DNA of 64,000 nt from an uncultured Rhodospirillaceae bacterium (GCA_903941095.1 CAJANN010000226.1:374-64373), one strand, 5' to 3'; shown: positions 46,950-64,000, numbered from the stretch's first letter. Program-made: numbers and translations. The notes: generated by a model from the letters alone, not told the origin.

Positions 46950-48442
46950 CCGTGTGGGCGGCCCTGGAGGCCGGAGCGGCCAACCCCTTGATGTGGATTC
47001 TGGCCATTCCCCTGGGATCGGCCGGGTTCCTGGCCGTGCTGCCCCATTGGCGGCTGGCGGCGTGGCTGAACGTCGCGGCGGCGGGGACCACGTTCCTGGC
47101 TTCGCTGGTGCTGTTCCGGCACCGGCCCGAGCCGACGCACCTGCTGTTCATCGATGATTTCAATATCTATCTGGTGGCCCTGACCGCTTTCGTCGGCTTC
47201 ACCACGTCGATCTTCTCGGCCGCCTATATCGGCCGCGAGACACAGGCGGACCGCCTGTCCGACGTGCATCTGCGGTTCTACCACGCGATGTACCAGGCCT
47301 TCCTGTTCACCATGCTGCTGGCCCTGGTGGCCAACAATACCGGGGTGATGTGGGTGGCGGTCGAGGCGGCGACGCTGACCACCGTGCTGATGGTCAGCCT
47401 GTACCGCACGCGCGAGGCCATCGAGGCGGCGTGGAAATATTTCATCCTGTGCTCGGTGGGAATCGGGCTGGCCCTGTTCGGCACCACCCTGGTCTATCTG
47501 GCCGCCCAGCCGGTGATGGGGGACGGCGCCGACGCGATGGCATGGACGCTGCTGATCGGCAAGGCCCATGCCTTCCATCCCGACCTGCTGAATCTGGCCT
47601 TCGTCTTCCTGCTGGTCGGCTACGGCACCAAGGTCGGGCTGGCGCCGCTGCATGCCTGGCTGCCCGACGCCCATGCCGAGGGGCCGACGCCGATCTCGGC
47701 GGTGCTGTCGGGGCTGCTGCTGAATGTGGCCCTGTATGCCCTGCTGCGCTTCAAGATGCTGCTCGCCGCCAACGGCAAGACCCTGGAGCCCGGTCCCCTG
47801 ATGATCATGATGGGGCTGTCCAGCCTGTTCCTGTCGGCGTTCATGCTGTATCGCCGCGGCGACATCAAGCGGCTGTTCGCCTATTCGTCGATCGAGCACA
47901 TGGGGGTCATCACCTTCGCCTTCGGCCTGGGCGGCCCGGTGGCCAACTTCGCCGGGCTGATGCACATGACCATGCATTCGCTGACCAAGTCGGGAATCTT
48001 CTTCGCCGTCGGCATCATCACCCAGAATGCCGGCACCAAGCGTCTGGCCGACATCCGGGGCCTGACCGCCAGCCATCCGGTGCTGGGCTGGGGTTTCGTC
48101 ATCGCCGTGCTGGCCATTGCCGGGCTGCCGCCGATGGGGGTGTTCATGAGCGAGTTCCTGGTGGTGACATCGGCGTTCGCCCGTCAGCCGCTGCTGGCTT
48201 TGCCCCTGGCGGTGGGGCTGCTGCTGGCCTTCGGCGCGCTGGCGATCCGGCTGCAGGGCATGGCCTTCGGCGCGCCGCCGCCGGCGCGGCGCGTCCACAG
48301 TCAGGCCCGGGTCGGACTGATGTCGACGGTGCTGGCCTATGTGCCGCTGTGGCTGCATGTGGCGCTGGTGGTGGTGGCCGGCCTGTGGCTTCCCGGACCG
48401 CTGGTGGCCTGGTTCGAAGCCGTGGCGAAATTGTTGGGGTGA
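46946..48442 (+). CDS. Ehr/HyfF-like antiporter-type subunit
   Basis: WVAVEAATL, EAAWKY, GYGTKVGLAPLHAWLPDAHAEGP, KRLFAYSSIEH. Confidence 0.9.
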   Translation: MTVWAALEAGAANPLMWILAIPLGSAGFLAVLPHWRLAAWLNVAAAGTTFLASLVLFRHRPEPTHLLFIDDFNIYLVALTAFVGFTTSIFSAAYIGRETQADRLSDVHLRFYHAMYQAFLFTMLLALVANNTGVMWVAVEAATLTTVLMVSLYRTREAIEAAWKYFILCSVGIGLALFGTTLVYLAAQPVMGDGADAMAWTLLIGKAHAFHPDLLNLAFVFLLVGYGTKVGLAPLHAWLPDAHAEGPTPISAVLSGLLLNVALYALLRFKMLLAANGKTLEPGPLMIMMGLSSLFLSAFMLYRRGDIKRLFAYSSIEHMGVITFAFGLGGPVANFAGLMHMTMHSLTKSGIFFAVGIITQNAGTKRLADIRGLTASHPVLGWGFVIAVLAIAGLPPMGVFMSEFLVVTSAFARQPLLALPLAVGLLLAFGALAIRLQGMAFGAPPPARRVHSQARVGLMSTVLAYVPLWLHVALVVVAGLWLPGPLVAWFEAVAKLLG

Positions 48443-48448
48443 CGGGTC

Positions 48449-49969
48449 ATGATGGGAAACATCACCCTGATGGAGTTTCTGTCGGCGGGACGCGAGGTGC
48501 CGGGGCACCGGCCGTGGCCGCGCTATCAGCTGGACGCCCGCACCTGGCGCCGTCTGGCCGAGCAGATGACGGTGTCGAACTGGGAGATCCTGGCCGAATG
48601 GGGCGAGCCGGCCGAAGTGCACGTGCTGCTGCGCGGCGAGGATTCAGGGGCCATCGCCGTGGCCTCGCATCCCTGCCCCGACGGCAAGTTCTTCGCCCTG
48701 GGGCAGGCGCGGCCATCGGCGATCCGGCTGGAACGGGCCATCCGCGACCTGTGGGGGCTGGTGCCCGAAGGGCTGGAGGATCAGCGCCCGTGGCTGGATC
48801 ACGGCCGCTGGGGGGTGCGCCACCCGCTGGGAAAGCCGCGCGAGACCGATGGCGTGCCCCATGTCTATCGCTTCCACACCGCCGAGGGCGACGGGCTGCA
48901 CCAGATCCCGGTGGGGCCGGTTCATGCCGGGGTGATCGAACCCGGGCACTTCCGCTTTCACTGCCAGGGCGAGACGGTGGTCCGTCTGGAAGAGCGGCTG
49001 GGCTATGTCCACAAGGGGATCGAGGGTCTGCTGGCCGGCAAGCCGGTGGCCGATGCCGCCCGGATCGTCGCCCGGGTTTCCGGCGATGCGACGGTGGCCT
49101 ATTCCCTGGCCTTCGCCCACGCCGTCGAGGCGGCGCTGGGGCACGAGCCACCGCCGCGGGCGGTCTGGCTGCGGGCGTTGATGGCGGAATGCGAGCGGTT
49201 GGCCAACCATCTGTTCGACATCGGCGCCATCTGCAACGACGCCGCCTTCGCCATCATGCTGTCGCACCTGGGGGCGCTCAGGGAAAAGGTGCTGCGGGCC
49301 AATCAGGCCTGTTTCGGCCATCGCCTGCTGATGGACCGGGTCGTTCCGGGCGGTGTCGCCGCCGACCTGCCCGACGACGGCGTGCCGATCCTGCGGCGCA
49401 TGGCGCACGAGGTCGGCAAGGGCTTCGAACGCGCCATGCAGCTTTACGACAACACGCCGTCCCTGCTGGACCGCACCACCGGCACCGGCGTGCTGACCGG
49501 CGCCCTGGCCCATCGGTTCGGGGCCGGCGGCTTCGTCGGGCGGGCGTCGTCGCGCGGGCTGGATGCCCGGCGCAATCCCGGCTATGCCCCCTATGACGAT
49601 CTGGCCTTCACCATTCCGGTGATGGCCGACGGCGACGTCCATGCCCGCCTGACGGTCCGGGCCGAGGAAATCCGGGCATCGCTGGGGTTGCTGGATCAGA
49701 TCCTGACCGCGTTGCCGGCCGGGCCGGCGGCGGCTCCGCTGGCCCTGCGCGGCGCGGGGGAGGGGTTGGGAATCGTCGAAAGCTTCCGGGGCGAGGTGGT
49801 CGTCTGGGTCCGGGTGTCGGAAAGCGGCAAGGTGGTCCGGTGCCATCCGCATGATCCGTCGTGGTTCCAGTGGCCGCTGCTGGAGGCGGTGATCGAGGGC
49901 AACATCGTGGCCGACTTCCCGCTGTGCAACAAATCGTTCAACTGTTCCTATTCCGGCCAGGATTTGTGA
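48449..49969 (+). CDS. Hydrogenase large-subunit homolog (HyfG/NuoCD-like, EhrL) lacking Ni-binding motifs
   Basis: PVGPVHAGVIEPGHFRF, GYVHKGIE; RVSGD replaces RxCGxC; C-terminus DFPLCNKSFNCSYSGQDL replaces DPCxxC. Confidence 0.9.
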   Translation: MMGNITLMEFLSAGREVPGHRPWPRYQLDARTWRRLAEQMTVSNWEILAEWGEPAEVHVLLRGEDSGAIAVASHPCPDGKFFALGQARPSAIRLERAIRDLWGLVPEGLEDQRPWLDHGRWGVRHPLGKPRETDGVPHVYRFHTAEGDGLHQIPVGPVHAGVIEPGHFRFHCQGETVVRLEERLGYVHKGIEGLLAGKPVADAARIVARVSGDATVAYSLAFAHAVEAALGHEPPPRAVWLRALMAECERLANHLFDIGAICNDAAFAIMLSHLGALREKVLRANQACFGHRLLMDRVVPGGVAADLPDDGVPILRRMAHEVGKGFERAMQLYDNTPSLLDRTTGTGVLTGALAHRFGAGGFVGRASSRGLDARRNPGYAPYDDLAFTIPVMADGDVHARLTVRAEEIRASLGLLDQILTALPAGPAAAPLALRGAGEGLGIVESFRGEVVVWVRVSESGKVVRCHPHDPSWFQWPLLEAVIEGNIVADFPLCNKSFNCSYSGQDL

Positions 49970-49970
49970 C

Positions 49971-50513
49971 ATGCCCCTGATCCCGCCCATCGCCCGGATC
50001 ATCGCCCGCCACCTGCTGAAGGGGCCGCTGACCATGAAGGGCGCCCCCGAGCCCGACCCTGCCGGTCTGGTGGAACTGGGCGACGCCCTGGGGTTGGAAA
50101 GCCGGGTCCGCCTGGGGCGCTCGCTGTCGATCCGCGCGGTCGATGCCGGCAGCTGCAACGGATGCGAACTGGAAATCCATGCGGTCAACAATCCGGTCTA
50201 CGACCTGGAACGCTTCGGCATCCGTTTCGTCGCCAGCCCGCGCCACGCCGACGTGCTGCTGGTGACCGGGCCGGTCAGCTGGAACATGGCCGAGGCGTTG
50301 CGCCGCACCTACGACGCCACGCCGGCGCCGCGCTGGGTGGTGGCGATGGGCGATTGCGGCAAGGATGGCGGCTGCTTCGCCGGTTCCTACGCCGTGGCCG
50401 GCGGTGCATCGGCCGTCATTCCGGTGGACCTGCACATCCCCGGTTGCCCGCCGACGCCGACCGCGCTGCTGTCGGGGCTGCTGGCCCTGCTGCAGACGGT
50501 GTCGGCGAAATAG
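49971..50513 (+). CDS. NuoB/HyfI-like Fe-S small subunit (EhrS)
   Basis: GSCNGCELE, SPRHADVLLVTG, GDC, IPGCPP. Confidence 0.92.
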   Translation: MPLIPPIARIIARHLLKGPLTMKGAPEPDPAGLVELGDALGLESRVRLGRSLSIRAVDAGSCNGCELEIHAVNNPVYDLERFGIRFVASPRHADVLLVTGPVSWNMAEALRRTYDATPAPRWVVAMGDCGKDGGCFAGSYAVAGGASAVIPVDLHIPGCPPTPTALLSGLLALLQTVSAK

Positions 50514-50519
50514 CGCGGA

Positions 50520-51542
50520 TCAGATGGCGAAGGCCCGTTCCGCCTGACGGATCTGGCCGATTCCCTGGATCATTTCCGAGGCCATGAAGTCGGCGCGCTT
50601 GACCGGGCCGCCCATGTTGGGGTGCGGGAACATCCGGGCGAACGAGTTCATCTTCACCGTCAGGCCGCACAGCACCGACCCGATGGTGACGTGATAGCGT
50701 TCGATCATCGTCTTGACCTGACGGAATTCTTCCTGGCTCAGGTTGCCCCACATCTCGCGGGTGCGGCGTTCGAAGATCTCCAGCCGGCCGGTGATGGCCG
50801 CCGACATGTTGTTGATGGTGTCCTCGATGGTGTCGCAGGTCTTCATCAGGCCGGGATCCTGCTTCAGCTGGAAATGCGTGCGGATCGGCTTCAGCGATTC
50901 GACGCAGGCGGTGAAATAAGGTTCCAGCCGGTCCAGGCAATGGCGGAAATAGGACAGCGACAGGAAGGTGTCGCCGTAATCCTCAAGGAAGCGGGGGACC
51001 TCGAAAATCTCGATGTTCAGGCTGGCGGCCATCTGTTCCAGCCGCTGGCGGGCCTTGCGCACGTCGGGATCGCGGAACAGGTGCAGCAGGTCCTCGTAGG
51101 TGTCGATGTTCACCGCTTCGTCGGCATAGATCAGCTTCAGCAGCGGCCGGGTAAACAGCATCATGTACTTGGTCAGCTCGGTGGCTTTTTCCGGCGACAG
51201 CTTCAGGGCCGAATAATCGTTCACCGGAATGCCGTGCTCGCGCAGGCTGATGCGCAGGGAATAGACGTCGTAGCTGGGCAGCAGGGCCAGGCGGCGCAGG
51301 ACGGCGTGGTCGGGATGCAGTTCCATGTCCGGCCAGTTGAACATGCGCGGCAAGCTGTCGATGTCGACCTGACCCGAGCCGGTCTGGGCATCCTGAAAGA
51401 TTTCGATCACGCTTTTCAGGCGCACGTTCTTGATGAGTTTGGCGCTTTGCAGCGCAGGAGTTTGCAGCGGTATGATCGAAAGCGGCAGGACGAACATGGA
51501 ATCCATGTCGCTGTCTGCTATCGGACTCAGCTCGTCGTCCAT
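50520..51542 (-). CDS. Conserved-looking hypothetical protein (340 aa)
   Basis: Long ORF with host-like codon usage and balanced composition; no motif recognised. Confidence 0.8.
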   Translation of the reverse strand: MDDELSPIADSDMDSMFVLPLSIIPLQTPALQSAKLIKNVRLKSVIEIFQDAQTGSGQVDIDSLPRMFNWPDMELHPDHAVLRRLALLPSYDVYSLRISLREHGIPVNDYSALKLSPEKATELTKYMMLFTRPLLKLIYADEAVNIDTYEDLLHLFRDPDVRKARQRLEQMAASLNIEIFEVPRFLEDYGDTFLSLSYFRHCLDRLEPYFTACVESLKPIRTHFQLKQDPGLMKTCDTIEDTINNMSAAITGRLEIFERRTREMWGNLSQEEFRQVKTMIERYHVTIGSVLCGLTVKMNSFARMFPHPNMGGPVKRADFMASEMIQGIGQIRQAERAFAI

Positions 51543-51690
51543 CGAACCCCGGTGCCCCCATCAATTGCGCGGCCATATTGCCGTGAAAAATCCCGGCGGG
51601 AAACCGGGAAGTTTCAGTATTGAATAAGGGCAAAACCGGATGGCCGGCGGTGCCGGGCCGGACCGGCGCCTCGGCATCCGGCCGGGGCGG

Positions 51691-52134
51691 CTATGCGGCG
51701 TGCTGGCGTTTGGCGGCGCGGGCCCGTTCGGCGTCTTCGGGGGAATAGGCCTTGCCCTGCCACAGCAGGTGATAGCCGGTTTCCTCGTTGCCGTTCTCGC
51801 ACAGGGCCAGAACGTCGGCGAACAAGGGCTGGAAGGTTTCCGAGCGGTGCGATTCCTCGTGTTCAGCGAAGCTGCGCCAGAAGGTGACGATCAGGGCCTC
51901 GCGGTCCTTCAGCGGCGATTCCACCGTCTGGCCGATGGTCGATCCCTCGTTCGAGATGAAGCCGGCATTCAGGCAGACGAACCCGCCGACGAACCCGGTG
52001 TCGGAATGGTAGGTCTTGACGTTCTCACACAGCAGGGCGACCCGCTCCTGCAGGTCGTCGGTGTCGAATCCGGGCTTCAGCAGGACGCGGTTGACGGTGA
52101 TGACGCCATCGGCGGGAAATCCGGAAATCAGCAT
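51691..52134 (-). CDS. Small sulfur oxygenase reductase (SOR)-like/ABM-fold protein
   Basis: GFVG, TFW-x5-HEESHR, E-x-x-Y and C36 align by eye with SOR Cys31/His86/His90/Glu114. Confidence 0.65.
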   Translation of the reverse strand: MLISGFPADGVITVNRVLLKPGFDTDDLQERVALLCENVKTYHSDTGFVGGFVCLNAGFISNEGSTIGQTVESPLKDREALIVTFWRSFAEHEESHRSETFQPLFADVLALCENGNEETGYHLLWQGKAYSPEDAERARAAKRQHAA

Positions 52135-53735: not shown

Positions 53736-54230
53736 CTAGCCGGTCTGCCGGGCCTTGTCCTGGCTGCGCTTGACCACGGCGACCCCCAGCACGCCCAGGG
53801 CGATGCCCCAGATCGGCGCGGTGTTGACCAAGGCTGCGATGATGGCCGGAGCCTGGGCCGGTTCGGCGACGATGGCCCACGAGACGGCGATCATGGTGGC
53901 GGTCCAGGTCAGGGCGACGGCATAGCCGAAGGTCGGCCGCCAGCGCCTGACATAGACGTCGTCCGAGCGGATTTCTGCCCGCAGCGAGGAATTGACCTGG
54001 GCCAGGGTGGCTCTGGTTTCGGCGCTGTCCAGATCGGTCATGCGTTCCAGGTGGCGGTTGGCCTCGGCGACCTGTTCGGGGGGAATGGCCTGTTCGCCCA
54101 GGGCCTTGCCGACCTGGGTCAAGGCCCCGGCCGCCGCCCTGGCGGCGGGGTGGTCGACCGATTCCAGGGCCTGCCCCACCGCCTTGACCAGCAGCGGCAG
54201 GCCGATCGAGGCCAGAAAAGCGGGAAGCAT
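53736..54230 (-). CDS. Putative holin (GTA 3TM-holin-like)
   Basis: D-x-YVRRWRPTFGY followed by two TMs; last gene of the phage-like operon, next to a cell-wall hydrolase. Confidence 0.7.
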   Translation of the reverse strand: MLPAFLASIGLPLLVKAVGQALESVDHPAARAAAGALTQVGKALGEQAIPPEQVAEANRHLERMTDLDSAETRATLAQVNSSLRAEIRSDDVYVRRWRPTFGYAVALTWTATMIAVSWAIVAEPAQAPAIIAALVNTAPIWGIALGVLGVAVVKRSQDKARQTG

Positions 54231-54235
54231 GGCGG

Positions 54236-54715
54236 TTACTCCACGTCGTTGTAGAACAGGTGGTGGCCGATCTCGGCCGAAGGGTCTACCCGTCTGGCCC
54301 AGGCCGGCAGGCTGCCCCGGCGGTGATAGTGGGTGGCGCCGCCGGTGGGGTCGTCCAGGCTGCCGCCGATGGCGCGGCGGGCGATGCGGATGCAGATGCG
54401 GAACTGGCGGTCGGCCGGTCCGACCTGCCGCAGCTTGGCGGCATTGGGGTCGGTGTCGTTCCAGCACGAGAACTGCCAGGGCTTGCGGCATACCGTTTCG
54501 ACCGAATTTCCCCACCAGTACTGGCCGTTGCGCTCCTTGGCCCGGGCGACGCGGTTCAGCACCACGGCGGCCACGGCTTCCTTGCCGCGCACCGGCTCGC
54601 CGCGGGCTTCTCCCCACAGGGTGCGGGCCAGGATGTCCACCGCCGATCCCGGTGCGGGGGCGGTTTCCTGGGATTCGCGGTCGGGTTCGACGGCGATGTC
54701 GACGATCGGGTTCAT
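54236..54715 (-). CDS. Cell-wall hydrolase (SleB/Hydrolase_2 family), putative endolysin
   Basis: LARTLWGEARGE (catalytic Glu), VVLNR, WQFSCWN, GATHYH, IGHHLFY. Confidence 0.88.
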   Translation of the reverse strand: MNPIVDIAVEPDRESQETAPAPGSAVDILARTLWGEARGEPVRGKEAVAAVVLNRVARAKERNGQYWWGNSVETVCRKPWQFSCWNDTDPNAAKLRQVGPADRQFRICIRIARRAIGGSLDDPTGGATHYHRRGSLPAWARRVDPSAEIGHHLFYNDVE

Positions 54716-55017
54716 CCGCGCCCCCCGCCGCCCTGGGCGGCGTCCAGCTTGGCTTCGATCCGCACCAGATGTTCGGTCAGCCGGCGTTCGACATCCTTCA
54801 GATAGCCGGTGGTGGCATAGCTTTTCGCCACTTCCAGCTTATAGGCGGCCAGGGCTTCGCGCAGTTGCGCCAGTCCCGAGGCCAGCCTGTCCTCGATCAG
54901 GTCGTCGCGGCCGTCGCAGCTTTGGCGGTTGGTCCACACCAGCCACAGCAGGCCGCCCAGGGCCGGCAGTTCGACGGCGCTGACCCACCACATCAAATCG
55001 GCGCTCCAGTGGTCCAT
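54712..55017 (-). CDS. Small TM + coiled-coil protein, lysis-module associated
   Basis: N-terminal hydrophobic helix followed by a heptad pattern; stop overlaps the hydrolase start. Confidence 0.7.
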   Translation of the reverse strand: MDHWSADLMWWVSAVELPALGGLLWLVWTNRQSCDGRDDLIEDRLASGLAQLREALAAYKLEVAKSYATTGYLKDVERRLTEHLVRIEAKLDAAQGGGGRG

Positions 55018-55042
55018 CGCGGTTTCTCCTTGAGGATTGGGG

Positions 55043-56533
55043 TTACGGTGTGAAATCGCTGTCGGCCACCACGCCGCCGCCGCCCGGACGCCAGTCCCGC
55101 CGGTCGGCGCTGCCGGCCGGGGGGAGCCGGCCCAGGCGGACCGGCTGGGACAGCAGGCAGCCGGCGACGGCGTCCAGACCGTCGTCGCGGCACTTGCCGC
55201 CGGGCTGCCATTCGCGCATTTCGGCGACGAACGGCGTATCCCAGACCGAGCGATGGGCGTTCAGGGCTCCGGCGGCCAGGACGGCGTCGAAGGCGTCGAC
55301 GATGCGCTGGTCCTTGGCCTTGCGGCTGGCGACCTCGATCACCGCGCACGGGACCCCCTGGGCGGCCAGCTCGCGGCGCAGCAGGCCGGGCAGGAAGCGG
55401 CCCAGGCCGTTGGTTTCCAGCGTCACCGAGGGCAGGAACAGGTCGCGGGCGAATTCCGCCACCTGACGGCACAGCTGGCTGGCTTCGTCGGTGTCGGCGC
55501 GGGCCGGGTCGTGGGTCAGATAGCGGACGCGATGCAGCCAATAACCGCCCTGTTCGTCGGTGAAGACGGCGGCCACCACGCTGGAATCGCCCTTGCCGGG
55601 GGCGCCGTAGGCCGGATCCCACCAGCACGACACCGATACCAGCCGCGTTTCGCCCAGCGACAGGACCGGCAGGCGGTTGCCTTCGGCATAGGCCAGTTCG
55701 GTCTCGTACAGTTTCAGGCGGTCGGGATCCAGGCGGCCGTCGGCGATGTTGACCGGGCGCAGCATCATCTGGCTGTCGAACTTGTTGGGGCCGGTACGCC
55801 GCCGGATGCCGGCGATCCTGTCGGCGGGGAATCGTTCGGGCCAGGCCGACCGGCCCTTGCCGTCCAGCAGCGGGATTTCCAGCCGGTCGAAGCCGTCCAG
55901 GAACGGGCGCTGCTCGCCGGCCTCCAGCCGGGCCGCGGCGGCGTAGATGGTATAGAAGGAATGCGGGGTGCCGACGTAAAGCTGCAGGCCGCCCGGCACC
56001 AGGACATATTCGGTCTCGCCCAGCCGTTCGCGCAAATCCACCCGCTTGGGGGCGCTGTCGCAGGTGTTGGGGACCTCGACATCGTCGCAGATCAGGATGT
56101 CGGCGCGGCTGCCGGTGATGTTGGCGCCGATGCCCTTGGCGATCATCGACGGGTCGCGCAATTCTCCCGGCCGGTTGACGGTGAACTGGTCCGACGCCCA
56201 TTGCTCGCGCCGGGGCGGCTTCAGCCCCTGCGTCAGCGGGTGGCGTTCGACGATGCGCTTGACGTTGCGGACCATCTTCTTGGCCAGGGCGAAGTCGGCG
56301 GCCAGGACCATGATGCGCAGGTTGGGCTCGGCCATCAGCACCCAGGCGCAGAACAGGCCGACGATGGTGGACTTGCCGGAATTGCGGAAGGCCATCAGCA
56401 GCAGTTCGCGGTGGCGCCCGCGCCAGCGCGCCGCCAGCCAGCGGGCCATGCGCAAATGGTGGCGCGGCGTCGGCAGACCCACCTTCTCGTTCCAGATCCA
56501 GACGAATTCGGGAAAGTCGACGCCGTTCATCAT
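55043..56533 (-). CDS. Phage terminase large subunit (T7 gp19-like)
   Basis: Walker A LMAFRNSGKS, Walker B ILICDDVE, YVGTPH coupling motif, WWDPA and DDGLDA nuclease motifs. Confidence 0.92.
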   Translation of the reverse strand: MMNGVDFPEFVWIWNEKVGLPTPRHHLRMARWLAARWRGRHRELLLMAFRNSGKSTIVGLFCAWVLMAEPNLRIMVLAADFALAKKMVRNVKRIVERHPLTQGLKPPRREQWASDQFTVNRPGELRDPSMIAKGIGANITGSRADILICDDVEVPNTCDSAPKRVDLRERLGETEYVLVPGGLQLYVGTPHSFYTIYAAAARLEAGEQRPFLDGFDRLEIPLLDGKGRSAWPERFPADRIAGIRRRTGPNKFDSQMMLRPVNIADGRLDPDRLKLYETELAYAEGNRLPVLSLGETRLVSVSCWWDPAYGAPGKGDSSVVAAVFTDEQGGYWLHRVRYLTHDPARADTDEASQLCRQVAEFARDLFLPSVTLETNGLGRFLPGLLRRELAAQGVPCAVIEVASRKAKDQRIVDAFDAVLAAGALNAHRSVWDTPFVAEMREWQPGGKCRDDGLDAVAGCLLSQPVRLGRLPPAGSADRRDWRPGGGGVVADSDFTP

Positions 56534-56856
56534 TCATCCTCCTGAGGGTCGTCGTCGAACTCGGTCAAGGCCGCCCGGGCCTGGGCCAGCAGACGGTCGA
56601 TGCCGGTCTCGGCCGGGTCGGCGGTCTCGGCGCGGCCTTCCGCCCAGCGGACCAGCTTGAGCAGCAGTTCGACATGGGCCAGGGCGGCCTTGGCGGCGGC
56701 GTGCCAGGCGGCGAAGCCCTTGGCGTCGGCCGGCGGTTCGTCGCCGGTGAAACGTTCGTAACCGTCGAGCGCCATGCGGACGCGGGCCGGCAAGGCCCCC
56801 CGCAGGCCGGACCGCAGGGTCTCGATGTCGTCGGGCGACCATTGTTCGTCAGCCAT
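56530..56856 (-). CDS. Hypothetical protein, candidate terminase small subunit
   Basis: 108-aa helical protein with acidic tail; stop overlaps the large terminase ATG. Confidence 0.55.
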   Translation of the reverse strand: MADEQWSPDDIETLRSGLRGALPARVRMALDGYERFTGDEPPADAKGFAAWHAAAKAALAHVELLLKLVRWAEGRAETADPAETGIDRLLAQARAALTEFDDDPQEDE

Positions 56857-57115
56857 GCAACGTCCCCCGCAGCATGGCGATCCGGGCATCCACGTCGGCC
56901 AGCCACGCCTTGCCCGCTTCGGTCAGCGCGGCTTCCCGCAGACGGCGGTTGGTGACGGTGGCCTCCAGGGCGGCGATTTCCGCCAGGATGGCCCTGCGGG
57001 CGGCCTCGGCCGCCAAGGCGGGGCGGGCCGCTTCGATCTCGGCCAGTTCCGCCCCGGTCAACGGCACCTGACGCGCGTCTCCGGTTTCGGCATTCACTTC
57101 GATACGGAAGGTCAT
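56849..57115 (-). CDS. Small phage protein, candidate tail-fibre chaperone
   Basis: 88 aa immediately after the tail fibre gene and coupled to the next gene; assignment by position only. Confidence 0.5.
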   Translation of the reverse strand: MTFRIEVNAETGDARQVPLTGAELAEIEAARPALAAEAARRAILAEIAALEATVTNRRLREAALTEAGKAWLADVDARIAMLRGTLHG

Positions 57116-57117
57116 GA

Positions 57118-58944
57118 TCAGGCGCTCCTCTTGCCGCGATACAGGATGAACGTGCCGCTCACACCCGTTCCCCCGGCGTCATGAAACCGGACGGCCACAA
57201 GAACTTCCTGGGTAGAGCGGTAGCCGGAAAAAGTATCATTGCGCAATTCGCCGGTAGGGCCGTGTCTTGATGCGGTCATTCCGTATATCTTGTGGTACGC
57301 ATTGGCGGATGGGTTCGGGATGAAGACATGACCGACATAGCCGTCAGCCGTGGATGCCACGTTTGATCCATTGTTTGACAGTTTCAGCGTGGACAGACCG
57401 GAGCCGCTGTTGCCGGAACCGGGGGAAGAGCTGCTGGCCATCGCGACCATTGCTTCCTGATATCCGGATGTCTGATAGGCAGGCCCGGCAGTGCCAAAGC
57501 GGAACCCCAGCTCTTGACCTGATCCGGTATAGACGCCGTCGAAAACCACCATGTAATCGTAGCCGGAAACCAGTCCGGTGAAGTCCACGGTCGCCGCCCC
57601 GCTTGCCGTCGTGCTGCTGACGAATTCCCATGCCCCGGCACTGACAGCGGCCCAGGTCTGATCGCCGCGCAGATAGGTCGACGAACCGGCCGATCCGGAC
57701 CCGAGCCGGGCCGTGGCAATGGTCCCAGAGGCGATGTCGGCGGCGGTGTGGGTGTGCACGGCGGGTGCGGCGCCGTCCGCCTTGGCGCCCTGGGCCGCCG
57801 TGGCGTAATCCGATGCCGCCGTTGTCGCCGCCGTGCCCAGTCCCAGGCTGGTGCGGGCGGTCGCCGCGCTGGACAGGTCGGACAGATTGTTGGCCGCCGC
57901 CAGATAGCCGGCGCCCGAGACATAGGCCGCGACCCAGGCCGATCCGGTATGGACCTTCATGGCCCCGGAAGCGGTGTTGAAATAGATCGAGCCGGCCACC
58001 AGGGCGTTGCCGTCGTTGTCGACGACGGGGTCGGACGCCTGGGCGCCCAGATAGCGGTCGTCGAAGCTGTCGAAGGCGGCCAGGGTGCTGTCCCGTGCGG
58101 CCTCGGCGGCGATCTTGGCGGACGCGGCGTCGGCGGCAGACGTGGAAGCCTCGCCGGCCTTGGTGGCCGCAATGCCGGCCTGGGTGGTCGCCGTGGCCGC
58201 CGAAGCGGCAGCGGCGGTCTCGGACAGTCCAGCAGCGGTTTCTGAAGCCAGGGCGGCGCCGGCGCTGGCTTCGGCGTCCACAGCCTTGGCGGTGGTGATC
58301 CCGGCTTGCGTGGTGGCGATGGCGGCGGCGGCGCTGACGGTCGAGGCGCTGGCCGAGGCAGCGGACGCAGATGCGGACGCGGACGCCGCCGAGCCCGAGG
58401 CGGACGCGGCCGATCCGGAAGCGGCGGCGGCAGCGGCATCGACCGCGGCCAGGGTGACGGCGAATTCCGCCGGGTCGTTGGTCAGGCCCGATCCGTCTGC
58501 GTTCCAGCCGATGGCCTTGCCGGGGGCCGGCTCGGGCAGGGTCAGGTCGGCATTCGAGGCGCTGGTGGGGGCACGGGCGACGGCGCGGGCGGCATCCTCG
58601 GCCACCTGCTGGATGGCGGCGGTCTGGATGTCGAATTCATCGTTCAGGGTCTTGGCGCGGATCACGCCGTCGGCCTGGAAATCGGTGGTGCGGCCCACCG
58701 CCATGCGCCGGCGCAGGGTGATGCGGGCGCCGGCGGCCGGCGGAACGGAAAACAGCACCGAGCCGCCGGCCGAGATGCCGGCCCCCGATACCGAAAAGCC
58801 GGTCTCCCGGCGGACCGAATCCTGCCAGACTTCCATGTCCTCGGGGCGGAAGATGGGGAAGGGATAGGTGAAGGCGGCCTGCACCCCGTCGGCGACATAG
58901 GCGATGCGCGGGGCGACGGCACTGATCTGGATATGTTCTGTCAT
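57118..58944 (-). CDS. Podovirus-type tail fibre protein (608 aa)
   Basis: T7-gp17-like N-terminal anchor (YVADGVQAAFTYPFPIF...RTTDF), Ala/Ser linker, FDDRYLGA..DP..DNDGNAL motif, NNLSDL..ATARTSLGLG, HTH fibre repeat, beta-rich tip. Confidence 0.88.
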   Translation of the reverse strand: MTEHIQISAVAPRIAYVADGVQAAFTYPFPIFRPEDMEVWQDSVRRETGFSVSGAGISAGGSVLFSVPPAAGARITLRRRMAVGRTTDFQADGVIRAKTLNDEFDIQTAAIQQVAEDAARAVARAPTSASNADLTLPEPAPGKAIGWNADGSGLTNDPAEFAVTLAAVDAAAAAASGSAASASGSAASASASASAASASASTVSAAAAIATTQAGITTAKAVDAEASAGAALASETAAGLSETAAAASAATATTQAGIAATKAGEASTSAADAASAKIAAEAARDSTLAAFDSFDDRYLGAQASDPVVDNDGNALVAGSIYFNTASGAMKVHTGSAWVAAYVSGAGYLAAANNLSDLSSAATARTSLGLGTAATTAASDYATAAQGAKADGAAPAVHTHTAADIASGTIATARLGSGSAGSSTYLRGDQTWAAVSAGAWEFVSSTTASGAATVDFTGLVSGYDYMVVFDGVYTGSGQELGFRFGTAGPAYQTSGYQEAMVAMASSSSPGSGNSGSGLSTLKLSNNGSNVASTADGYVGHVFIPNPSANAYHKIYGMTASRHGPTGELRNDTFSGYRSTQEVLVAVRFHDAGGTGVSGTFILYRGKRSA

Positions 58945-58955
58945 GGTCGGGTCCC

Positions 58956-60887
58956 CTATTCCGAGAGCTTCATTTCGGTGGCGACCGCCAGCACCGTGCA
59001 GGGCAGCGGCACGTCCTGACGGATCCGCCACAGCGGCTTCAGGGCGTCGCGGGTCCAGCCGATGGCGCGGATCTTGACGTCGCCGGAAAAGACCGGCGGT
59101 GCGGCATCCAGGACATCGCGGCCATAGCGGCGGAACGGGATGGCGGTCAGGCCGCGGCCGGTGTCGATGTATAGGGCCTGGGTGTCGAGCAGGCGGAAGT
59201 TGGCGGCGACCAGCCGCACCACCGCGCCCGGCCCGGCTCCGCCGGCTCCCTGCACCACCGGCGGCAGCGGTTCGACGACATGGGCGAAGGGCAGGCCGGC
59301 ATGGATGTTGCGGGCCGGCTCCGCCAGGGTCACTGCGCCGTCGGCCACCACATGGTCGCTGATGGCGCCGTGGTCGGCCAGGACGCGGACATTGCATCCG
59401 TTCAGGTGGTCCAGACCGCTCCAGGTGGTTTTGGCGGTGGCGCTGCCGCCGGTCAGGGCGCTGTCCAGCGACAGGGATTCGTCGAAGCATTCGATGAATG
59501 TCTCGCCGCCGCGTTCGACCAGCAGATAGACCACCCCTTCCACCACCGCCACCGCCCGGAAACGGCCGTCGGTGGCATGTCCGGTCCAGGCGGTTACTTT
59601 CTCGGCGCGATAGATGGTGACGGTCGACAGGCTGCCGTCGGCCATCACCACATGGAACAGCCGGCGTCCGGGGTCGTAATCCTGGTCGACGGCGCCGTTC
59701 AGCATGTGCTTGGCGAACATCGACAGGTCCGAGGCCTGGTAGGCCTGCTCGACATCGGCGAACAGGAACTCGCGCAGGTCGCGGCCGTTGCGGGACACGA
59801 ACAAGGTGGCCCCGTCGACGTCGCGCGGCGGCACCGAGCGGTCGACGGGCGATCCCACCCGGGTCTGCCGGGTCAGCTGGATCTTGGTCGGCGTCAGCGG
59901 GTCGCCGGACACCATCCATTCGGCGCCCGAGGTGAAGACCTGCAGGTGCCGGCCGGAAAACACGGCGCGGATGGCGTTGACCTGATCGGACAGCAGGGCG
60001 AATTCGATGGACTCGTCGTCCAGCCCCTCGCCCAGGTCGAAATTGAACAGGTCCGACGATTTCGACAGCCACAGCCGGTTGGGCAGGTCGCGGCTGCCGC
60101 CGATCACCAGCCGGTCCTGATGGAAGCAGACCGAAACCGGCCAGCCGCGCACCGCCGACAGGGCCTGTTCCTCCCAGTCCTTGCTGGTGGCGGCGTTGAC
60201 CAGCGGCTGCCTGGTGGTGGCCGTCGCCTGGGTGGGCGACAGGATGGCGGCGATCTCGACCTCTTTGCCCTGCAGGCGAAAGCGCAGACCGGCATGGCCG
60301 GCGGCGAACAGCGCCGCCGAGGCGGTCAGGGTGACGGTGCCCGATGTGGCCGACGGGGTCAGCGTCACGTCGTCGGGGGCGAACTTGTGGTAGGGCTGGC
60401 GGATCACCCCGACATCGTCGACATCGTCGTCTTCGTCGGAATCGTCCTGGTAGAAGGTCCAGGGAACGATGGTCCAGGCACTGTGCGAGGTTCGGGTGAT
60501 CTTGCGCGGCGCCACGTCGGGATGGACCACCAGCAGCGTGTCGGCGGTCTGGGTCCAGTTGATCTGCCGGATCTGCGCCGCGCTCCACGGCGTGGCGAAG
60601 TCGGCGACCTTGACGCCGTCGGCATAGACGTCGGCATGCAGGTCGGTCAGCACCAGCAGATAGGTCTGTTCGGTGTTGAACTCGAAGGCGACCAGCCGGC
60701 CGGGGCCGCGGGCCCGGTCGACGAAGCGGGTGCCGGGCCGGCGGCTGACGCCGCCGATGGGGGCGATGACGACGTTGCGCAGGGTCATGGCGCCGTTGGC
60801 ATAGGCCGACAGGTCGCCGCGGCCCAGCATGTCCATGCTCAGTTCGCCGGCGGTGAAATTGGTTTTGGCCAGGGTGATCAGGCTCAT
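58956..60887 (-). CDS. Tail tubular protein B/nozzle (T7 gp12/P22 gp10-like)
   Basis: TNFTAGELS...GG-x-SRRPGTRFV, FEFNTEQTYLL, WPVSVCFHQDRL; 643 aa. Confidence 0.85.
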   Translation of the reverse strand: MSLITLAKTNFTAGELSMDMLGRGDLSAYANGAMTLRNVVIAPIGGVSRRPGTRFVDRARGPGRLVAFEFNTEQTYLLVLTDLHADVYADGVKVADFATPWSAAQIRQINWTQTADTLLVVHPDVAPRKITRTSHSAWTIVPWTFYQDDSDEDDDVDDVGVIRQPYHKFAPDDVTLTPSATSGTVTLTASAALFAAGHAGLRFRLQGKEVEIAAILSPTQATATTRQPLVNAATSKDWEEQALSAVRGWPVSVCFHQDRLVIGGSRDLPNRLWLSKSSDLFNFDLGEGLDDESIEFALLSDQVNAIRAVFSGRHLQVFTSGAEWMVSGDPLTPTKIQLTRQTRVGSPVDRSVPPRDVDGATLFVSRNGRDLREFLFADVEQAYQASDLSMFAKHMLNGAVDQDYDPGRRLFHVVMADGSLSTVTIYRAEKVTAWTGHATDGRFRAVAVVEGVVYLLVERGGETFIECFDESLSLDSALTGGSATAKTTWSGLDHLNGCNVRVLADHGAISDHVVADGAVTLAEPARNIHAGLPFAHVVEPLPPVVQGAGGAGPGAVVRLVAANFRLLDTQALYIDTGRGLTAIPFRRYGRDVLDAAPPVFSGDVKIRAIGWTRDALKPLWRIRQDVPLPCTVLAVATEMKLSE

Positions 60888-61456
60888 GACCGCACCTCGA
60901 CCAGGGGGAAGCTGGTGATGGAGGACGGCACGTCCTGCTGGCCGTCGATCAGCTTGGCGCGGCGGAACTCGTCTTCGGCCAGCCGGTGCAGGAACTCGGT
61001 GCGGCTGGTGCTTTCGGTCAGCGGGATGCAGAACTCGGCGGCCATGCGGGCGATCAGCGCCTGGTCGAAGAAGGGCGGGAACGACAGTTCGTCGGGGCGG
61101 AAGACATAGGTCAGCACCACGCCGTCCTCGACGTTGCAGTGCAGCCGCGAGGCGGCGATGCGGTAATCCAGGCCGAAGCCGCGTTCACCGACGCCGGCCG
61201 ACAGGGCGCGCAGGAAGTCGGCCGGCAACTGGTAGGCGGCGCTGTAATCGGCCACCGGCTGGGCGGCCAGACGCGGCAAGGTGACCTGCCCGGTGGCGAA
61301 GTTCCACGGATGCGACGACAGCAGGGCGTCGCGCAGGGCCGGATAAAGATTGGCGCAGACCTCGGACTCGGCGGTTCCCTCGTCGAACGAGGCGATGGTC
61401 GAGGCCCCCAGTTTCAGCAGGGCGCGCGAACACAGCGCAATGGCGGACAGGGCCAT
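60884..61456 (-). CDS. Tail tubular protein A/adaptor (T7 gp11/P22 gp4-like)
   Basis: CSRALLKLGA, LLSSHPWNFA, YQLPADFLR, PPFFDQALIARMAAE. Confidence 0.85.
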   Translation of the reverse strand: MALSAIALCSRALLKLGASTIASFDEGTAESEVCANLYPALRDALLSSHPWNFATGQVTLPRLAAQPVADYSAAYQLPADFLRALSAGVGERGFGLDYRIAASRLHCNVEDGVVLTYVFRPDELSFPPFFDQALIARMAAEFCIPLTESTSRTEFLHRLAEDEFRRAKLIDGQQDVPSSITSFPLVEVRS

Positions 61457-61520
61457 GACGGCACTCCTTGTCGGAAGAAGGCTCCGGCGGGACGGTCGGC
61501 CCCGCCGGAGGATGGATGGA

Positions 61521-61790
61521 TCAGTCGCTGTCGGCGGCGCCGACCTGGGTCATGTCGTTGACGTCGACGGATCCCGCGGCGGCGGTCGAGACGAAGAACA
61601 GGCCGCCCTTGGGGGTGGCCGCCGTCTCGGTGTTGGCGATGATGATGTCGCCGGCCCGCAGCATGTCGGCCGCCGCGTTGAAGTAACCGGCGGTGTCGCC
61701 GGCGGCGGCGGCATCGGCGGTGGTGTAGTGCCACAGGGTGAAGCCGTTGGCATAGGCCAGCACGCTGAGATCCTTGGACAGGTAAGCCAT
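61521..61790 (-). CDS. Small capsid-associated (decoration/cement-like) protein
   Basis: 89 aa, beta-rich (GFTLWHY...GYFN...LRAGDII), directly after the capsid gene; function assigned by position. Confidence 0.6.
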   Translation of the reverse strand: MAYLSKDLSVLAYANGFTLWHYTTADAAAAGDTAGYFNAAADMLRAGDIIIANTETAATPKGGLFFVSTAAAGSVDVNDMTQVGAADSD

Positions 61791-61804
61791 TGTCCGATCC
61801 TCCT

Positions 61805-62623
61805 TCAGGCTTCCAGGCAGCGCAGGGACACCACGCCGACCGGATCGACGAGCGCGGCGCCCTGGCTCATCATGTTGTTGCAGAACCAGGCGGCGCGATC
61901 GCCGTGATAGGTGATCTCGCTCTTGACCTCGGCGCCCACCGCATGGGCCACCGCGGTCTTGTGGTACCAGTAGCAGTGACGGACGCCGCCGGACTTGGTC
62001 AGGCCGGAATGGGGCATCCACAGGGTGCCCAGCCAGTGCTTGGCCTGGGTGCCCTTCCACGGCAGGTCGTCGTTGCCGATATAGTCGGAATCGGCGAACT
62101 CGGGGATCTGCAGCAGGTCCGACCATTGCTTCCAGCCGACCACGGCGGTGCGCTCGCCGTCGTCGGGAACGTCGGCCTCGCCCAGCATCTCGAAGGCGGC
62201 CAGCACCTTGTCCTTGGTCAGGGCGGTGCTGCCGTCCAGGGCGTAGTTGGTGGATTTGTCCAGCTCGGCGATGATCAGTTCGTCGGTCTTGCGGCCCAGG
62301 GCATAGGCGCCGGCATTGACCAGGACGGCGCGCTCGTCGTGTTCGACCTTCAGGTCGTCCAGCTTGTCCAGCCAGTCGCCGGCGTAATAATCGTACAGCT
62401 GGCATTCGACCGAGGCGTGGTCGACGTTCATCACCGGCACCTTGCCGTGGCGGGCCTTGGTGCTGGCGGCGCCTTTGCCGACCTTCGAGAAGACGGCGAT
62501 GGCGCCGGTGACGTTGTTGCGGCTGCGCACGGTGTTGCGCAGCTTGGTGCCCTGCCGCTGATAGGCGGCGTGGACCTGGGCTCCGTAATCCTTGGAATAG
62601 GTGCTGATGACGGATGTGGACAT
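61805..62623 (-). CDS. Major capsid protein (BPP-1/podovirus-like, HK97 fold)
   Basis: MSTSVISTYSKDYGAQVHAAYQRQGTKLRNTV, AYALGRKTDELII, WLGTLWMPHSGL; RBS aaagg upstream of ATG 62623. Confidence 0.85.
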   Translation of the reverse strand: MSTSVISTYSKDYGAQVHAAYQRQGTKLRNTVRSRNNVTGAIAVFSKVGKGAASTKARHGKVPVMNVDHASVECQLYDYYAGDWLDKLDDLKVEHDERAVLVNAGAYALGRKTDELIIAELDKSTNYALDGSTALTKDKVLAAFEMLGEADVPDDGERTAVVGWKQWSDLLQIPEFADSDYIGNDDLPWKGTQAKHWLGTLWMPHSGLTKSGGVRHCYWYHKTAVAHAVGAEVKSEITYHGDRAAWFCNNMMSQGAALVDPVGVVSLRCLEA

Positions 62624-63002
62624 GTCGGTTTCCTTTGCGACGATGACGACGTGACGCCCGCTTCGGGCGGTTGCGGCCGGGGTCCCGGGTGATCCGGGCC
62701 GCCGTCCGGAGGCGGGCGGGCAGCCGCCGCCGGGCCGGGACGATGCCTGCGGGCATCGGTCCTGCGGTTGTCCGGCAGGCGGAATCGGGTGCGGTCCAGG
62801 CTCCCGCCCCGTGCGGAAGGGAGACGCACAGGGCGGGAGCGGCCGGCGCTCGACGGACGCACAAGGTGGCCCGGAGCTGCCGGACCTCGCGGACAGAGGG
62901 ATTTCAGCGAAAATTCTCTCTGTCGCGAGCCGGGAAAACGGATATGATCGGATATCGGGCGAGGGTCGCCCGCGGGCCACTCAGGGAAGCAGCGATACGG
63001 TC

Positions 63003-63695
63003 ATGAATCAGGTCGAAACAGCGGTGCGCATTTCCGGCACTCAACGCACCGAACGCATCGAGGCACGGGCCAACGCCCTGCTCGGCGATTGCCGGCGGGC
63101 TTTCCACGCGTTCGGCGAACTCGACGAACTGGCTGAAAACCTGCGCATCCTGTCCCTGAACGCCGAACTGGCGGCCGGCCGTGCCGGCGACAAGGGCCGG
63201 GCCGTGCGGGCTCTGACCCAGTACACCCGCGAGCTGGTCAACCGTCTGGCCCAGATCCGCGGCGAGATGAACCAGCTGCGTCTGCGCACCGACACCCTGT
63301 CGGAAAAGATCGAGGACGAGCTGAAGCAGCTGCGCGCCCTGGAGGAATCCTCGGCCGGCGGTTCGGAAAGCGCCGCCTTCGCCGAAATGATGCGGTCGCT
63401 GGTCGACAAGCTCGACGATCTGTCGACCAACGTCGAGGAACTGTCGCGCCGTGCGCACGGCGTCGAGGAGGTGGTCAGCCAGTCGGACTCGATCGCCACC
63501 AACATCGCCATCGAGGCCGCCGCCGCTGGCGTCCACGAAAAAGAATTCCGTACGGTGTCCGATACCATGCGCCGCTATGTCGACAATCTGCGGACCATGA
63601 TCGACGACGCTTCGGACGCCGTCCGCCGGGCCCTGGAAAAGGTCGATTCCCTGCGCCGTCTGGGCATCGAGAACCTGCAAAGCCTGCGCGGCTGA
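63003..63695 (+). CDS. Soluble MCP-signalling-domain-like coiled-coil protein
   Basis: LSLNAELAAGRAGDKGRA and IATNIAIEAAAAG...EFRTVS, two MCP hairpin-tip-like motifs; no TM. Confidence 0.75.
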   Translation: MNQVETAVRISGTQRTERIEARANALLGDCRRAFHAFGELDELAENLRILSLNAELAAGRAGDKGRAVRALTQYTRELVNRLAQIRGEMNQLRLRTDTLSEKIEDELKQLRALEESSAGGSESAAFAEMMRSLVDKLDDLSTNVEELSRRAHGVEEVVSQSDSIATNIAIEAAAAGVHEKEFRTVSDTMRRYVDNLRTMIDDASDAVRRALEKVDSLRRLGIENLQSLRG

Positions 63696-63717
63696 TCCGT
63701 TGCCGCAAGAGGGAACG

Positions 63718-63753
63718 GCAAACGGCCCCGGAAGATTTTCCGGGGCCGTTTGC
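63718..63753. terminator. Strong hairpin/probable intrinsic terminator
   Basis: gcaaacggccccggaa-gatt-ttccggggccgtttgc, 16-bp perfect stem. Confidence 0.8.
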
Positions 63754-63789
63754 TTGCCCGGACGGCGGGCGCAGCCAGGGTAGTGATAA

Positions 63790-63823
63790 GAACGTATATA
63801 GAACATTTTCCCGCCGCCGTCAA
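63790..63823 (-). promoter_or_regulatory. sigma70 promoter overlapped by an alphaproteobacterial LexA (SOS) box
   Basis: Minus strand TTGACG-N17-TATATA (63823-63795); GAAC-N7-GAAC (GAACGTATATAGAAC, 63790-63804) covers the -10. Confidence 0.75.
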
Positions 63824-63847
63824 GGCCTCGAATCACCCTGGCTTATG

Positions 63848-63941
63848 TCATGTCGGCCTCAATCGCCGGCGGGGGGCCGCCGCCGCCTTCCTCGCTTTCC
63901 CTCCGGGGCTCCGCCCCTCCGGCCGCGGCGGCGCCCTCAAG
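63848..63941. repeat. Dispersed ~95-100 bp intergenic repeat, copy 2
   Basis: Homologous to 34476-34575. Confidence 0.9.
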
Positions 63942-63952
63942 CGGCGGGGCGG

Positions 63953-64000
63953 TCAGTCGCCGTAGATCCGGCGGACGCCGGCCGAGACCTTGTCGATGAA
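63953..64000 (-). CDS. C-terminal end of a gene entering the window; candidate capsid scaffolding protein
   Basis: ...FIDKVSAGVRRIYGD-stop; resembles the C-terminal capsid-binding helix of podoviral scaffolds. Only 15 residues are visible. Confidence 0.4.
   Translation of the reverse strand, partial: FIDKVSAGVRRIYGD

Follow-up and report, generated by a model that had tools for sequence, protein, structure and literature searches.

A podovirus-derived gene cluster of Rhodospirillales as a candidate host-maintained particle system

A run of phage structural genes in a bacterial chromosome may be the visible part of a prophage or a particle system kept by its host, and the locus described here raises the question of which it is. 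The window, by which we mean the whole stretch of 64,000 nucleotides that was analysed (CAJANN010000226.1:374-64373 of assembly GCA_903941095.1, from an uncultured Rhodospirillaceae bacterium), carries on the minus strand, at positions 53736-62623, 11 intact, co-oriented and translationally coupled genes that lead from a major capsid protein to a holin (Table 1). A sequence-only reading of the window had taken this late operon for a candidate gene transfer agent (GTA)-like system, and its description of 11 intact, overlapping genes with named products agrees with our gene calls and with matches to PHROG, Pfam, NCBIfam and PDB entries. The proposal itself is supported by the comparisons below: the late operon rather probably belongs to a domesticated, chromosomally fixed, podovirus-derived particle system of the GTA/PBSX type, with an independent origin, for which GTA activity itself is a prediction from the genes. 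To our knowledge, phages have been domesticated into GTAs independently in only a handful of known cases. The best-studied GTA, of the RcGTA type, is siphovirus-derived.

The two-unit cluster and its chromosomal site

The cluster does not start at the capsid gene, as had been supposed, since the end of a scaffold gene lies at the right-hand edge of the window and a portal unit follows beyond it. The metagenome contig L001, which is 99.6 % identical to the window over 58329-64000 (5.7 kb) and extends 4.6 kb past it, encodes, outward from the capsid gene, the scaffold (PF05396), a Bbp19-like protein (PF25181) and a portal (PF12236, 1e-152), then three small open reading frames (ORFs) of 67, 156 and 121 aa, and finally a divergent 211-aa S24 repressor; the exact capsid protein is present on several metagenome contigs. 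The source is a Magnetospirillum-like bacterium of lake water. From holin to repressor the element measures about 14.6 kb, and the window holds the late two-thirds of this phage-derived gene cluster. It comprises two units, one outside the window (the S24-divergent small ORFs, portal, Bbp19-like and scaffold genes) and the other, from capsid to holin, within it. None of the three small ORFs matches a known family; for the 121- and 156-aa products (s121 and s156) this holds for Pfam, PHROG and NCBIfam. The window has no replication, repressor or RNA polymerase genes, as had been stated; replication and polymerase functions are missing from the whole element, all ORFs from S24 to holin being accounted for with no polymerase among them or among the extra ORFs of relatives, but a repressor lies just outside the window. 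Scaffold, portal and replication genes had been named as things to look for to the right of the window; the scaffold and portal are there on L001, and in relatives with readable flanks host genes follow, with no replication or integrase gene.

With a capsid profile, at least 578 loci were found in species-representative genomes, and the best 80 of these (66-91 % identity) were used for comparison. Gene calls in these relatives come from a simple caller based on G+C content at third codon positions (GC3), with family annotation on representative ORFs. Almost all of the best 80 are Rhodospirillales (Magnetospirillum, Azospirillum, Caenispirillum, Telmatospirillum, Roseospira, Terasakiella and Thalassospiraceae are among them) and the gene order is conserved. 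A shared site is evident in Azospirillum, Telmatospirillum, Oleisolibacter, Caenispirillum, Roseospirillum, Terasakiella and metagenome-assembled genomes, with the order pyrD-DUF952, element, S24-AT4-LysRS-UbiD. The lysis side is thus flanked by DUF952 and dihydroorotate dehydrogenase genes and the repressor side by those for a class IV aminotransferase (AT4), a class I lysyl-tRNA synthetase (LysRS) and UbiD; of the 73 loci with sequence past the repressor, 40 have LysRS and 31 the aminotransferase. The Magnetospirillum group has a 95-aa ORF (orf95) and FabI at this position, and the closest relatives with long contigs there have either orf95 and FabI or PAS-GGDEF, aminotransferase and phasin genes.

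Neither an integrase nor a replication module was found within or beside the element in relatives with readable flanks. The extra ORFs inside the elements of the 80 genomes fall into 123 clusters, with one resolvase and one IS transposase, and the others include tailspikes, peptidoglycan-binding virion proteins and host-like GGDEF-EAL, ODP lactamase, GST and Sel1 proteins; no tyrosine integrase or replication family is among the extra-ORF matches listed. The left end adjoins a housekeeping-type gene, as previously noted, in this case a TPR/GT9-like one, and in seven relatives no att-like direct repeats occur at the element boundaries above the level of shuffled controls. Read depth in lake metagenomes is equal for the left-junction contig (24.8) and a contig inside the element (24.7), and when metagenome contigs were placed along the window the only candidate excision or deletion joints were spurious ones of 20-25 nt in GC-rich sequence.

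Empty versions of the site are common. A metagenome search with the repressor found at least 500 loci, many of which read pyrD-DUF952-S24-aminotransferase-LysRS with zero phage genes, and profile searches with hidden Markov models did not find s121 or s156 in the empty sites. Because these sites lack all of the phage genes and these two small ORFs, the particle genes constitute an insertion/deletion polymorphism located exactly between DUF952 and S24, with S24 persisting. Clustering of the loci by host LysRS places the empty sites (14 loci) in clades of their own and the occupied sites in others, with one nested exception, and the presence of the element is therefore clade-structured at a site conserved across genera, not patchy and strain-specific.

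Pairwise protein distances within the element follow those of the neighbouring genes, for capsid against pyrD (Pearson 0.98, Spearman 0.94, n=12), portal against AT4 (Pearson 0.93, Spearman 0.78, n=17) and large terminase (TerL) against AT4 (Pearson 0.94, Spearman 0.79, n=11), with a weaker correlation (0.56) for capsid against LysRS in a more divergent set; all such correlations are inflated by clade structure and are support rather than proof. Capsid divergence is lower than that of pyrD, LysRS and AT4, with a mean distance of 0.17 against 0.26 for pyrD and of 0.22 against 0.32 for LysRS. Ratios of nonsynonymous to synonymous substitution (dN/dS) against the closest relatives are 0.12-0.26 for the capsid (up to 0.49 against Magnetospirillum sp. 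SS-4), 0.19-0.32 for TerL and 0.22-0.39 for the nozzle, and are biased upward because the strong GC3 bias compresses dS. Values of about 0.1-0.4, together with a capsid that evolves more slowly than adjacent housekeeping genes, are not those of neutral change, in line with what domestication had been taken to imply, and all frames are open in the window, as they are in most of the 80 species-level relatives. Throughout Rhodospirillales the element has diverged in step with its hosts, and it is under purifying selection.

The S24 repressor has a Cro/C1 helix-turn-helix (HTH) and an S24 peptidase domain, is of the LexA/CI type, and keeps the LexA-type Ala-Gly site and the Ser/Lys dyad in occupied and empty loci; no named protein family matches it beyond the HTH and Peptidase_S24 domains. 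In the 120 nt that separate S24 from s121, a TTGAC -35 box with AGGAA and TTCC motifs on its flanks is conserved across genera. The repressor family outnumbers the capsid family: at least 7997 S24 proteins were found at E<=1e-40, and 3779 capsid proteins at E<=1e-60. The gene (~210 aa) is 64-70 % identical everywhere and resides at the pyrD-DUF952/aminotransferase IV-LysRS locus even where phage genes are absent (metagenome loci with a resident S24 include L124, L127, L129, L149, L169, L176, L186 and L190). Since S24 is conserved as a host gene even without the element, and co-diverges with the flanks, host-level control of the element is suggested, and S24 may have a host role of its own. In two Azospirillum RNA-seq sets (X26 and X27) word depth is 8-50 for contigs with structural genes against 1364-1762 for the contig with S24 and its host neighbours, contig depth being a poor measure of expression; two others (X20 and X24) have a flat, DNA-like depth and are uninformative. 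We note separately that the source contig, L001 and L201, which are three assemblies of the window's strain, all seem to stop near S24, no more than about 700 bases apart, at window-equivalent positions 67.9-68.6 kb by coordinate arithmetic, which suggests a repeat or strain heterogeneity there.

The two units can also be parted. There are 59 genome loci that include 9 kb or more of sequence on the upstream side of the capsid; in these the late unit is contiguous with the portal module in 39, lacks it in 17 and is rearranged in three. In Magnetospirillum sp. SS-4 both halves are intact and lie on separate contigs among host genes, the S24-to-scaffold half on LR746531.1 beside MscS, ArsC and atpBEFF' and the capsid-to-holin half elsewhere; the presence of both halves within one genome was verified for SS-4 only. 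Ten Azospirillum lipoferum-type species have the half from the capsid to the membrane-protein gene between atpAGDC...SodC-Fur and pyrD, and on the chromosome of A. oryzae, which we take to belong to the same clade, the S24-to-scaffold half occupies the aminotransferase site, with a GGDEF-EAL gene next to it and host genes after that; a PLSDB search found no Azospirillum portal on chromids. The portal half leads directly into host genes in Magnetospirillum sp. XM-1, M. gryphiswaldense MSR-1 and metagenome contigs L207, L208, L131 and L132, and a single half is also seen in strain LM-5. These cases bear out the suggestion that such clusters are often divided between loci. The splits break between scaffold and capsid, which is the spot of host-gene insertions in contiguous copies, and because the breakpoints differ between lineages we regard them as independent events. 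A split of this kind is survivable for a host-maintained system and not for a virus, and since the halves are separated, one particle in these genomes cannot carry both. The comparisons show an element that has no mobility or replication genes, is conserved in position, has diverged together with its hosts and tolerates division between two loci.

Interpretation and its rivals

If the element is a domesticated particle system, the S24 repressor would hold both units off until DNA damage, acting through RecA-stimulated self-cleavage at the Ala-Gly site, or another host signal derepressed them in some cells. Short-tailed particles would then assemble, and the terminase would load them with chromosomal DNA, as proposed because the locus can neither excise nor replicate. 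The holin and endolysin would lyse the producer cell, and the fibre, with its horizontally exchanged tip, would direct the particles to related cells. A broader version, which we hold only tentatively and would not call probable, is that Rhodospirillales carry an ancient podovirus-derived GTA family, a new viriform lineage independent of RcGTA, with two separable operons and a LexA-like S24 switch; S24 may in that case be a resident host gene that outlives the loss of the particle genes.

Several points weigh against domestication for gene transfer. The particle, its packaged DNA and the transfer steps are predictions from sequence, and a CI-like S24 repressor with SOS-type control is also typical of ordinary temperate phages. 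If the capsid has T=7 symmetry, as in phage relatives of 32-41 kb, the contiguous 14.6-kb cluster fits one head, and an inability to package its own genes therefore does not follow from size alone. Delivery of DNA may be impaired, because the window's element is without large internal or ejection proteins. The window's element also lies away from the canonical pyrD/LysRS site, and the flank on its repressor side is read only in relatives whose S24 is 83-88 % identical. The element exchanges genes with real phages, as follows from the phage-style mosaicism of two relatives, L047 and L056, whose capsids and adaptors are 74-82 % identical to those of the element and whose portals and nozzles are only 32-37 % identical. 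L047, a 38.7-kb contig of Magnetospirillum moscoviense BB-1 with a different terminase and two ~770-aa proteins after the nozzle, is probably a real podophage that recombines head genes with the domesticated cluster. Lastly, IMG/VR lists relatives of the element as proviruses, and some copies are broken, the portal being cut at residue 309 in L013 and L018 and the capsid at residue 207 in L016; in these three IMG/VR isolate genomes foreign DNA lies within the gene and expands the predicted 'provirus' to 34-57 kb, and the interruptions may be secondary insertions of other mobile elements.

Gene transfer and PBSX-like killing or lysis are not separated by sequence alone. It is unlikely, though to be taken seriously, that the particles kill competitors or lyse the producer in the manner of PBSX or a bacteriocin, with host DNA packaged as a by-product and not productively delivered. 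The SOS-type repressor would suit such a function, as would the exchange and strain-level variation of the fibre tip, which suggest selection on target recognition, and the lack of large internal proteins between nozzle and fibre, in which the window's element differs from Pelagibacter phage EXVC031P ('Hodr') and from some of its own relatives. The purifying selection that keeps portal, small terminase (TerS) and TerL might be held against this reading, but PBSX keeps these genes too and the point does not discriminate. By comparison it is very unlikely that the window shows just the late arm of a normal temperate podophage, one that can still excise, replicate and infect. The portal, scaffold and CI-like repressor just past the window, the provirus labels in IMG/VR and the phage-like L047 with its similar capsid would all fit a prophage; the lack of integrase and replication genes in readable flanks and of att repeats, the same chromosomal site across genera with distances that track host genes, and the intact halves of SS-4 on separate contigs are what make it unlikely, and equal read depth inside and outside the element and host-like GC3 (the fibre tip excepted) also speak against it. 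A BPP-1-like prophage cut by the window edge, the first idea to come from the portal, scaffold and S24 genes of L001, was rejected on the housekeeping flanks of relatives and the split loci.

Two further explanations have, in our estimate, only a very small probability each. If the locus were a non-functional prophage remnant in slow decay, kept by chance or because loss of the lysis genes would have to precede that of the repressor, then the disrupted copies in L013, L016 and L018, the many lineages reduced to S24 alone and the missing ejection proteins would be expected, but the open frames of the window and of most relatives, the low dN/dS, a capsid more conserved than three housekeeping proteins and split halves that are intact across ten Azospirillum species would not. 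Alternatively, a helper-dependent, satellite-like mobile element might depend for its integration and replication on a co-resident phage and target the site beside S24, for which one could cite phages of the L047/L056 type that occur in the same hosts and share capsid and adaptor with the element, the two capsid genes of strain UT-4 and the persistence of S24 at element-free sites. Such an element would hardly be expected to have a full set of virion, packaging and lysis genes without the usual satellite integrase and primase or replicase, to co-diverge with flanking genes and be clade-structured in its presence, or to occur as split halves, which cannot move as one unit.

Should domestication be correct, a podovirus-derived system that is inherited vertically throughout an order would add one more independent case of it, would offer a second alphaproteobacterial system in which to ask how and why cells retain phage particles, and would imply a route of gene exchange in plant-associated Azospirillum and in magnetotactic bacteria. 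Provirus predictors, which label these loci as prophages (IMG/VR), would then be inflating prophage counts in Rhodospirillales. The element, or at least its portal half, occurs in cultured A. brasilense and M. gryphiswaldense MSR-1, both genetically tractable members of the order, and the proposal is therefore directly testable.

Genes of the late operon and the scaffold/capsid gap

Table 1. Features of the late operon and of the sequence between it and the right-hand end of the window
Feature	Position	Strand	Evidence or remarks
Holin-like membrane protein, last gene of the late operon	53736..54239	-	PF11351 GTA_holin_3TM 7.7e-16; phrog_3427 holin; phrog_1544
SleB-type endolysin (cell-wall hydrolase)	54236..54715	-	PF07486 Hydrolase_2 1.6e-21; phrog_938 endolysin
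101-aa membrane (TM) protein	54712..55017	-	phrog_29007 1e-35; kept beside TerL in ~40 relatives
Large terminase (TerL), T7 type	55043..56533	-	NF033889 termin_lrg_T7 1.7e-134, above cutoff; phrog_38 5e-79
Putative small terminase (TerS)	56530..56889	-	position only; phrog_31793 4e-31, a family without assigned function
88-aa protein	56849..57115	-	52 % identity to closest relative
Tail fibre	57118..58950	-	phrog_1640 and other tail-fibre families, residues 10-125
Tail nozzle, tail tubular protein B-like	58956..60887	-	phrog_376 3.7e-145; PDB 8ck1 'Tail Nozzle' 5e-61; 9efk 5.5e-33
Head-tail adaptor, tail tubular protein A-like	60884..61456	-	phrog_394 2.4e-46; phrog_9239 tail tubular protein
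89-aa protein	61521..61790	-	phrog_18004 1e-21; follows the capsid gene in almost all relatives
Major capsid protein, first gene of the late operon	61805..62623	-	PF19821 Phage_capsid_2 4e-87; PDB 9eg4 4e-20
43-nt conserved element, capsid/MCP-like intergenic	62907..62949	.	GATCATA..TTTTCCC..GACAG..GGAATTTT
Soluble 230-aa MCP-signalling-domain-like protein	63003..63695	+	PF00015 MCPsignal 1.5e-10, under Pfam cutoff
End of scaffold gene, last 16 codons	63952..64000	-	translation FIDKVSAGVRRIYGD and stop, the C-terminus of the L001 scaffold (PF05396 2.3e-16)

Four gene junctions of the late operon have 4-base overlaps, among them that of the holin and endolysin genes, and the stop of the putative TerS gene overlaps the TerL start. 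TerS evolves fast (dN/dS 0.5-0.7), and the 88-aa protein upstream of it belongs to no family in PHROG or Pfam searches. The 89-aa protein could have a head-associated role, and the 101-aa TM protein could conceivably be a holin partner or spanin-like. The fibre has a conserved N-terminal anchor, then an Ala/Ser-rich repeat region (low-complexity at 58085-58460, with a 21-nt in-frame insertion after 58387 in one metagenome strain) and a C-terminal tip. Codon usage is host-like outside this tip, as the sequence-only reading had it: GC3 is 0.82-0.92 in the element's genes, which is the range of the flanking host genes, and 0.85-0.87 in the rest of the fibre gene, against 0.68 over the last 200 codons (57118-57720). 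Single-nucleotide polymorphisms among metagenome strains cluster at 57229-57754, and the low GC3 of the tip together with this strain-level variation suggest that the receptor-binding end was recently replaced by horizontal exchange.

Between the scaffold and capsid genes lies the gene for the 230-aa MCP-like protein, which is fragment-like and consists only of a coiled coil resembling the MCP signalling domain. It is 66-96 % identical among relatives, with dN/dS of 0.05-0.28, and against strain LM-5 it is 96 % identical where the capsid is 91 % identical. In split genomes it stays with the capsid in LM-5 and SS-4 and with the scaffold in XM-1. The gap as a whole is an insertion hot spot, at which contiguous copies have acquired host-like genes, including a full-length PAS-GGDEF-EAL protein of ~790 aa in the A. 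brasilense group (L103, L108 and L210) and ODP lactamase, Sel1 or GST genes in other lineages; in A. oryzae the GGDEF-EAL gene remains with the portal half. The 43-nt element upstream of the capsid gene is a GC-rich inverted repeat bordered by T/A runs, is kept in 11 of 12 Magnetospirillum-group loci, split capsid halves included, and is a candidate regulatory site or terminator.

At the other end of the operon, the TPR/GT9-like gene that neighbours the holin end is followed by a hydrogenase/complex-I-like cluster. The latter (41400-50500, plus strand) is hydrogenase-4/complex-I-like, with Proton_antipo_M, NADHdh, Complex1_49kDa and Oxidored_q6 matches and an unusually negative AT skew of -0.15 to -0.35. 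Between it and the TPR/GT9-like gene are two adjacent minus-strand genes (50520-52134; 340 and 147 aa) of lower overall GC (0.60-0.64), present in all near-identical strains seen, that have no Pfam match.

Comparison with known systems

The capsid is 44 % identical to that of the nearest cultured phage and no phage in the collection exceeds 60 %, as against at least 66 % for the best 80 element loci. The derivation from a T7/BPP-1-like particle that had been proposed holds for the T7-type TerL and for the portal and scaffold families; the nearest cultured relatives are alphaproteobacterial podophages of the HTVC010P/'Hodr' type, not BPP-1. Hodr (34 kb) resembles the element in capsid (44 %), portal (36 %), nozzle (30-36 %), adaptor (32 %) and endolysin (42 %), its scaffold matching over a short stretch of 40 residues only, and podophages of the HTVC010P type have ~28 % identity to the element. 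Portal, scaffold, capsid, adaptor and nozzle occur in the same order in these phages, but their genomes of 32-41 kb include early and replication genes that take up ~20 kb, as well as genes for large internal virion proteins, all of which are absent from the ~14.6-kb element, and the space that Hodr fills with such proteins between nozzle and fibre has none in the window; some other element lineages carry M23 or peptidoglycan-binding proteins of 540-690 aa. The likeness to T7 is distant (portal 1e-13 against PDB 6r21/3j4a, scaffold family PF05396, T7-type TerL), and the element, unlike T7-like phages (Autographiviridae), has neither a single-subunit RNA polymerase nor DNA replication genes. 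With BPP-1 it shares the Bbp19-like protein beside the portal, but the Bordetella BPP-1-like portal is only 27 % identical, the element has no diversity-generating retroelement, DNA polymerase or integrase, and the BPP-1 capsid does not match the element capsid at E<=1e-5.

RcGTA (Rhodogtaviriformidae, of Rhodobacterales, Caulobacterales and Rhizobiales) is likewise a phage-derived head-tail-packaging cluster without replication or integration genes, with vertical inheritance, slow evolution, host-like composition and genes over several loci. The two are nonetheless distinct, as the sequence-only reading had maintained: the element is podoviral (portal PF12236, T7-type TerL, adaptor and nozzle), no prohead protease, tape measure or siphovirus tail family was found in it, and the holin family PF11351 is the sole family in common. 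Control also differs, through CtrA/GafA in RcGTA and apparently through a LexA/CI-type repressor here. Large RcGTA-like clusters are reportedly absent from deep-branching Rhodospirillales (PMC5721377).

PBSX-type particles provide a second comparison. PBSX/PBSZ of Bacillus are chromosomally fixed and non-replicating, are SOS-inducible via a repressor, package host DNA and lyse the producer. The element, known here from its genes alone, is likewise fixed, without replication genes and repressor-linked, and PBSX differs in being myovirus-like, from Firmicutes and unrelated in sequence. BaGTA of Bartonella and VSH-1 of Brachyspira are other independent domestications of tailed phages into host-maintained particle systems, with gene sets and hosts unrelated to those of the element; BaGTA works together with a run-off replication origin, of which no counterpart is seen here. 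The genes of VSH-1 are also divided between loci, according to a statement cited within PMC3899980. Satellites of the capsid-forming phage-inducible chromosomal island (cf-PICI) type differ from the element, which has a tail adaptor, nozzle and fibre but no integrase or replication module.

We found no published description of the element in the literature. A 2012 Azospirillum paper lists a core 'phage-related lysozyme' with a conserved context (PMC3899980), which is probably the element's endolysin. Set beside the features by which a temperate prophage is recognized (integrase or transposase, att sites and replication genes), the element has none, what lies beyond S24 being read from relatives with an S24 that is 83-88 % identical. 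Its essential genes form one block in the window's strain, as in 39 of 59 relatives; the other 20 have them split or rearranged. Set beside the criteria for GTA viriforms (as in Kogay et al., 2022; PMC9662315), it has virion, packaging and lysis genes in a cellular genome without replication or integration functions, and it is inherited vertically with its host, with some exchange of genes with phages.

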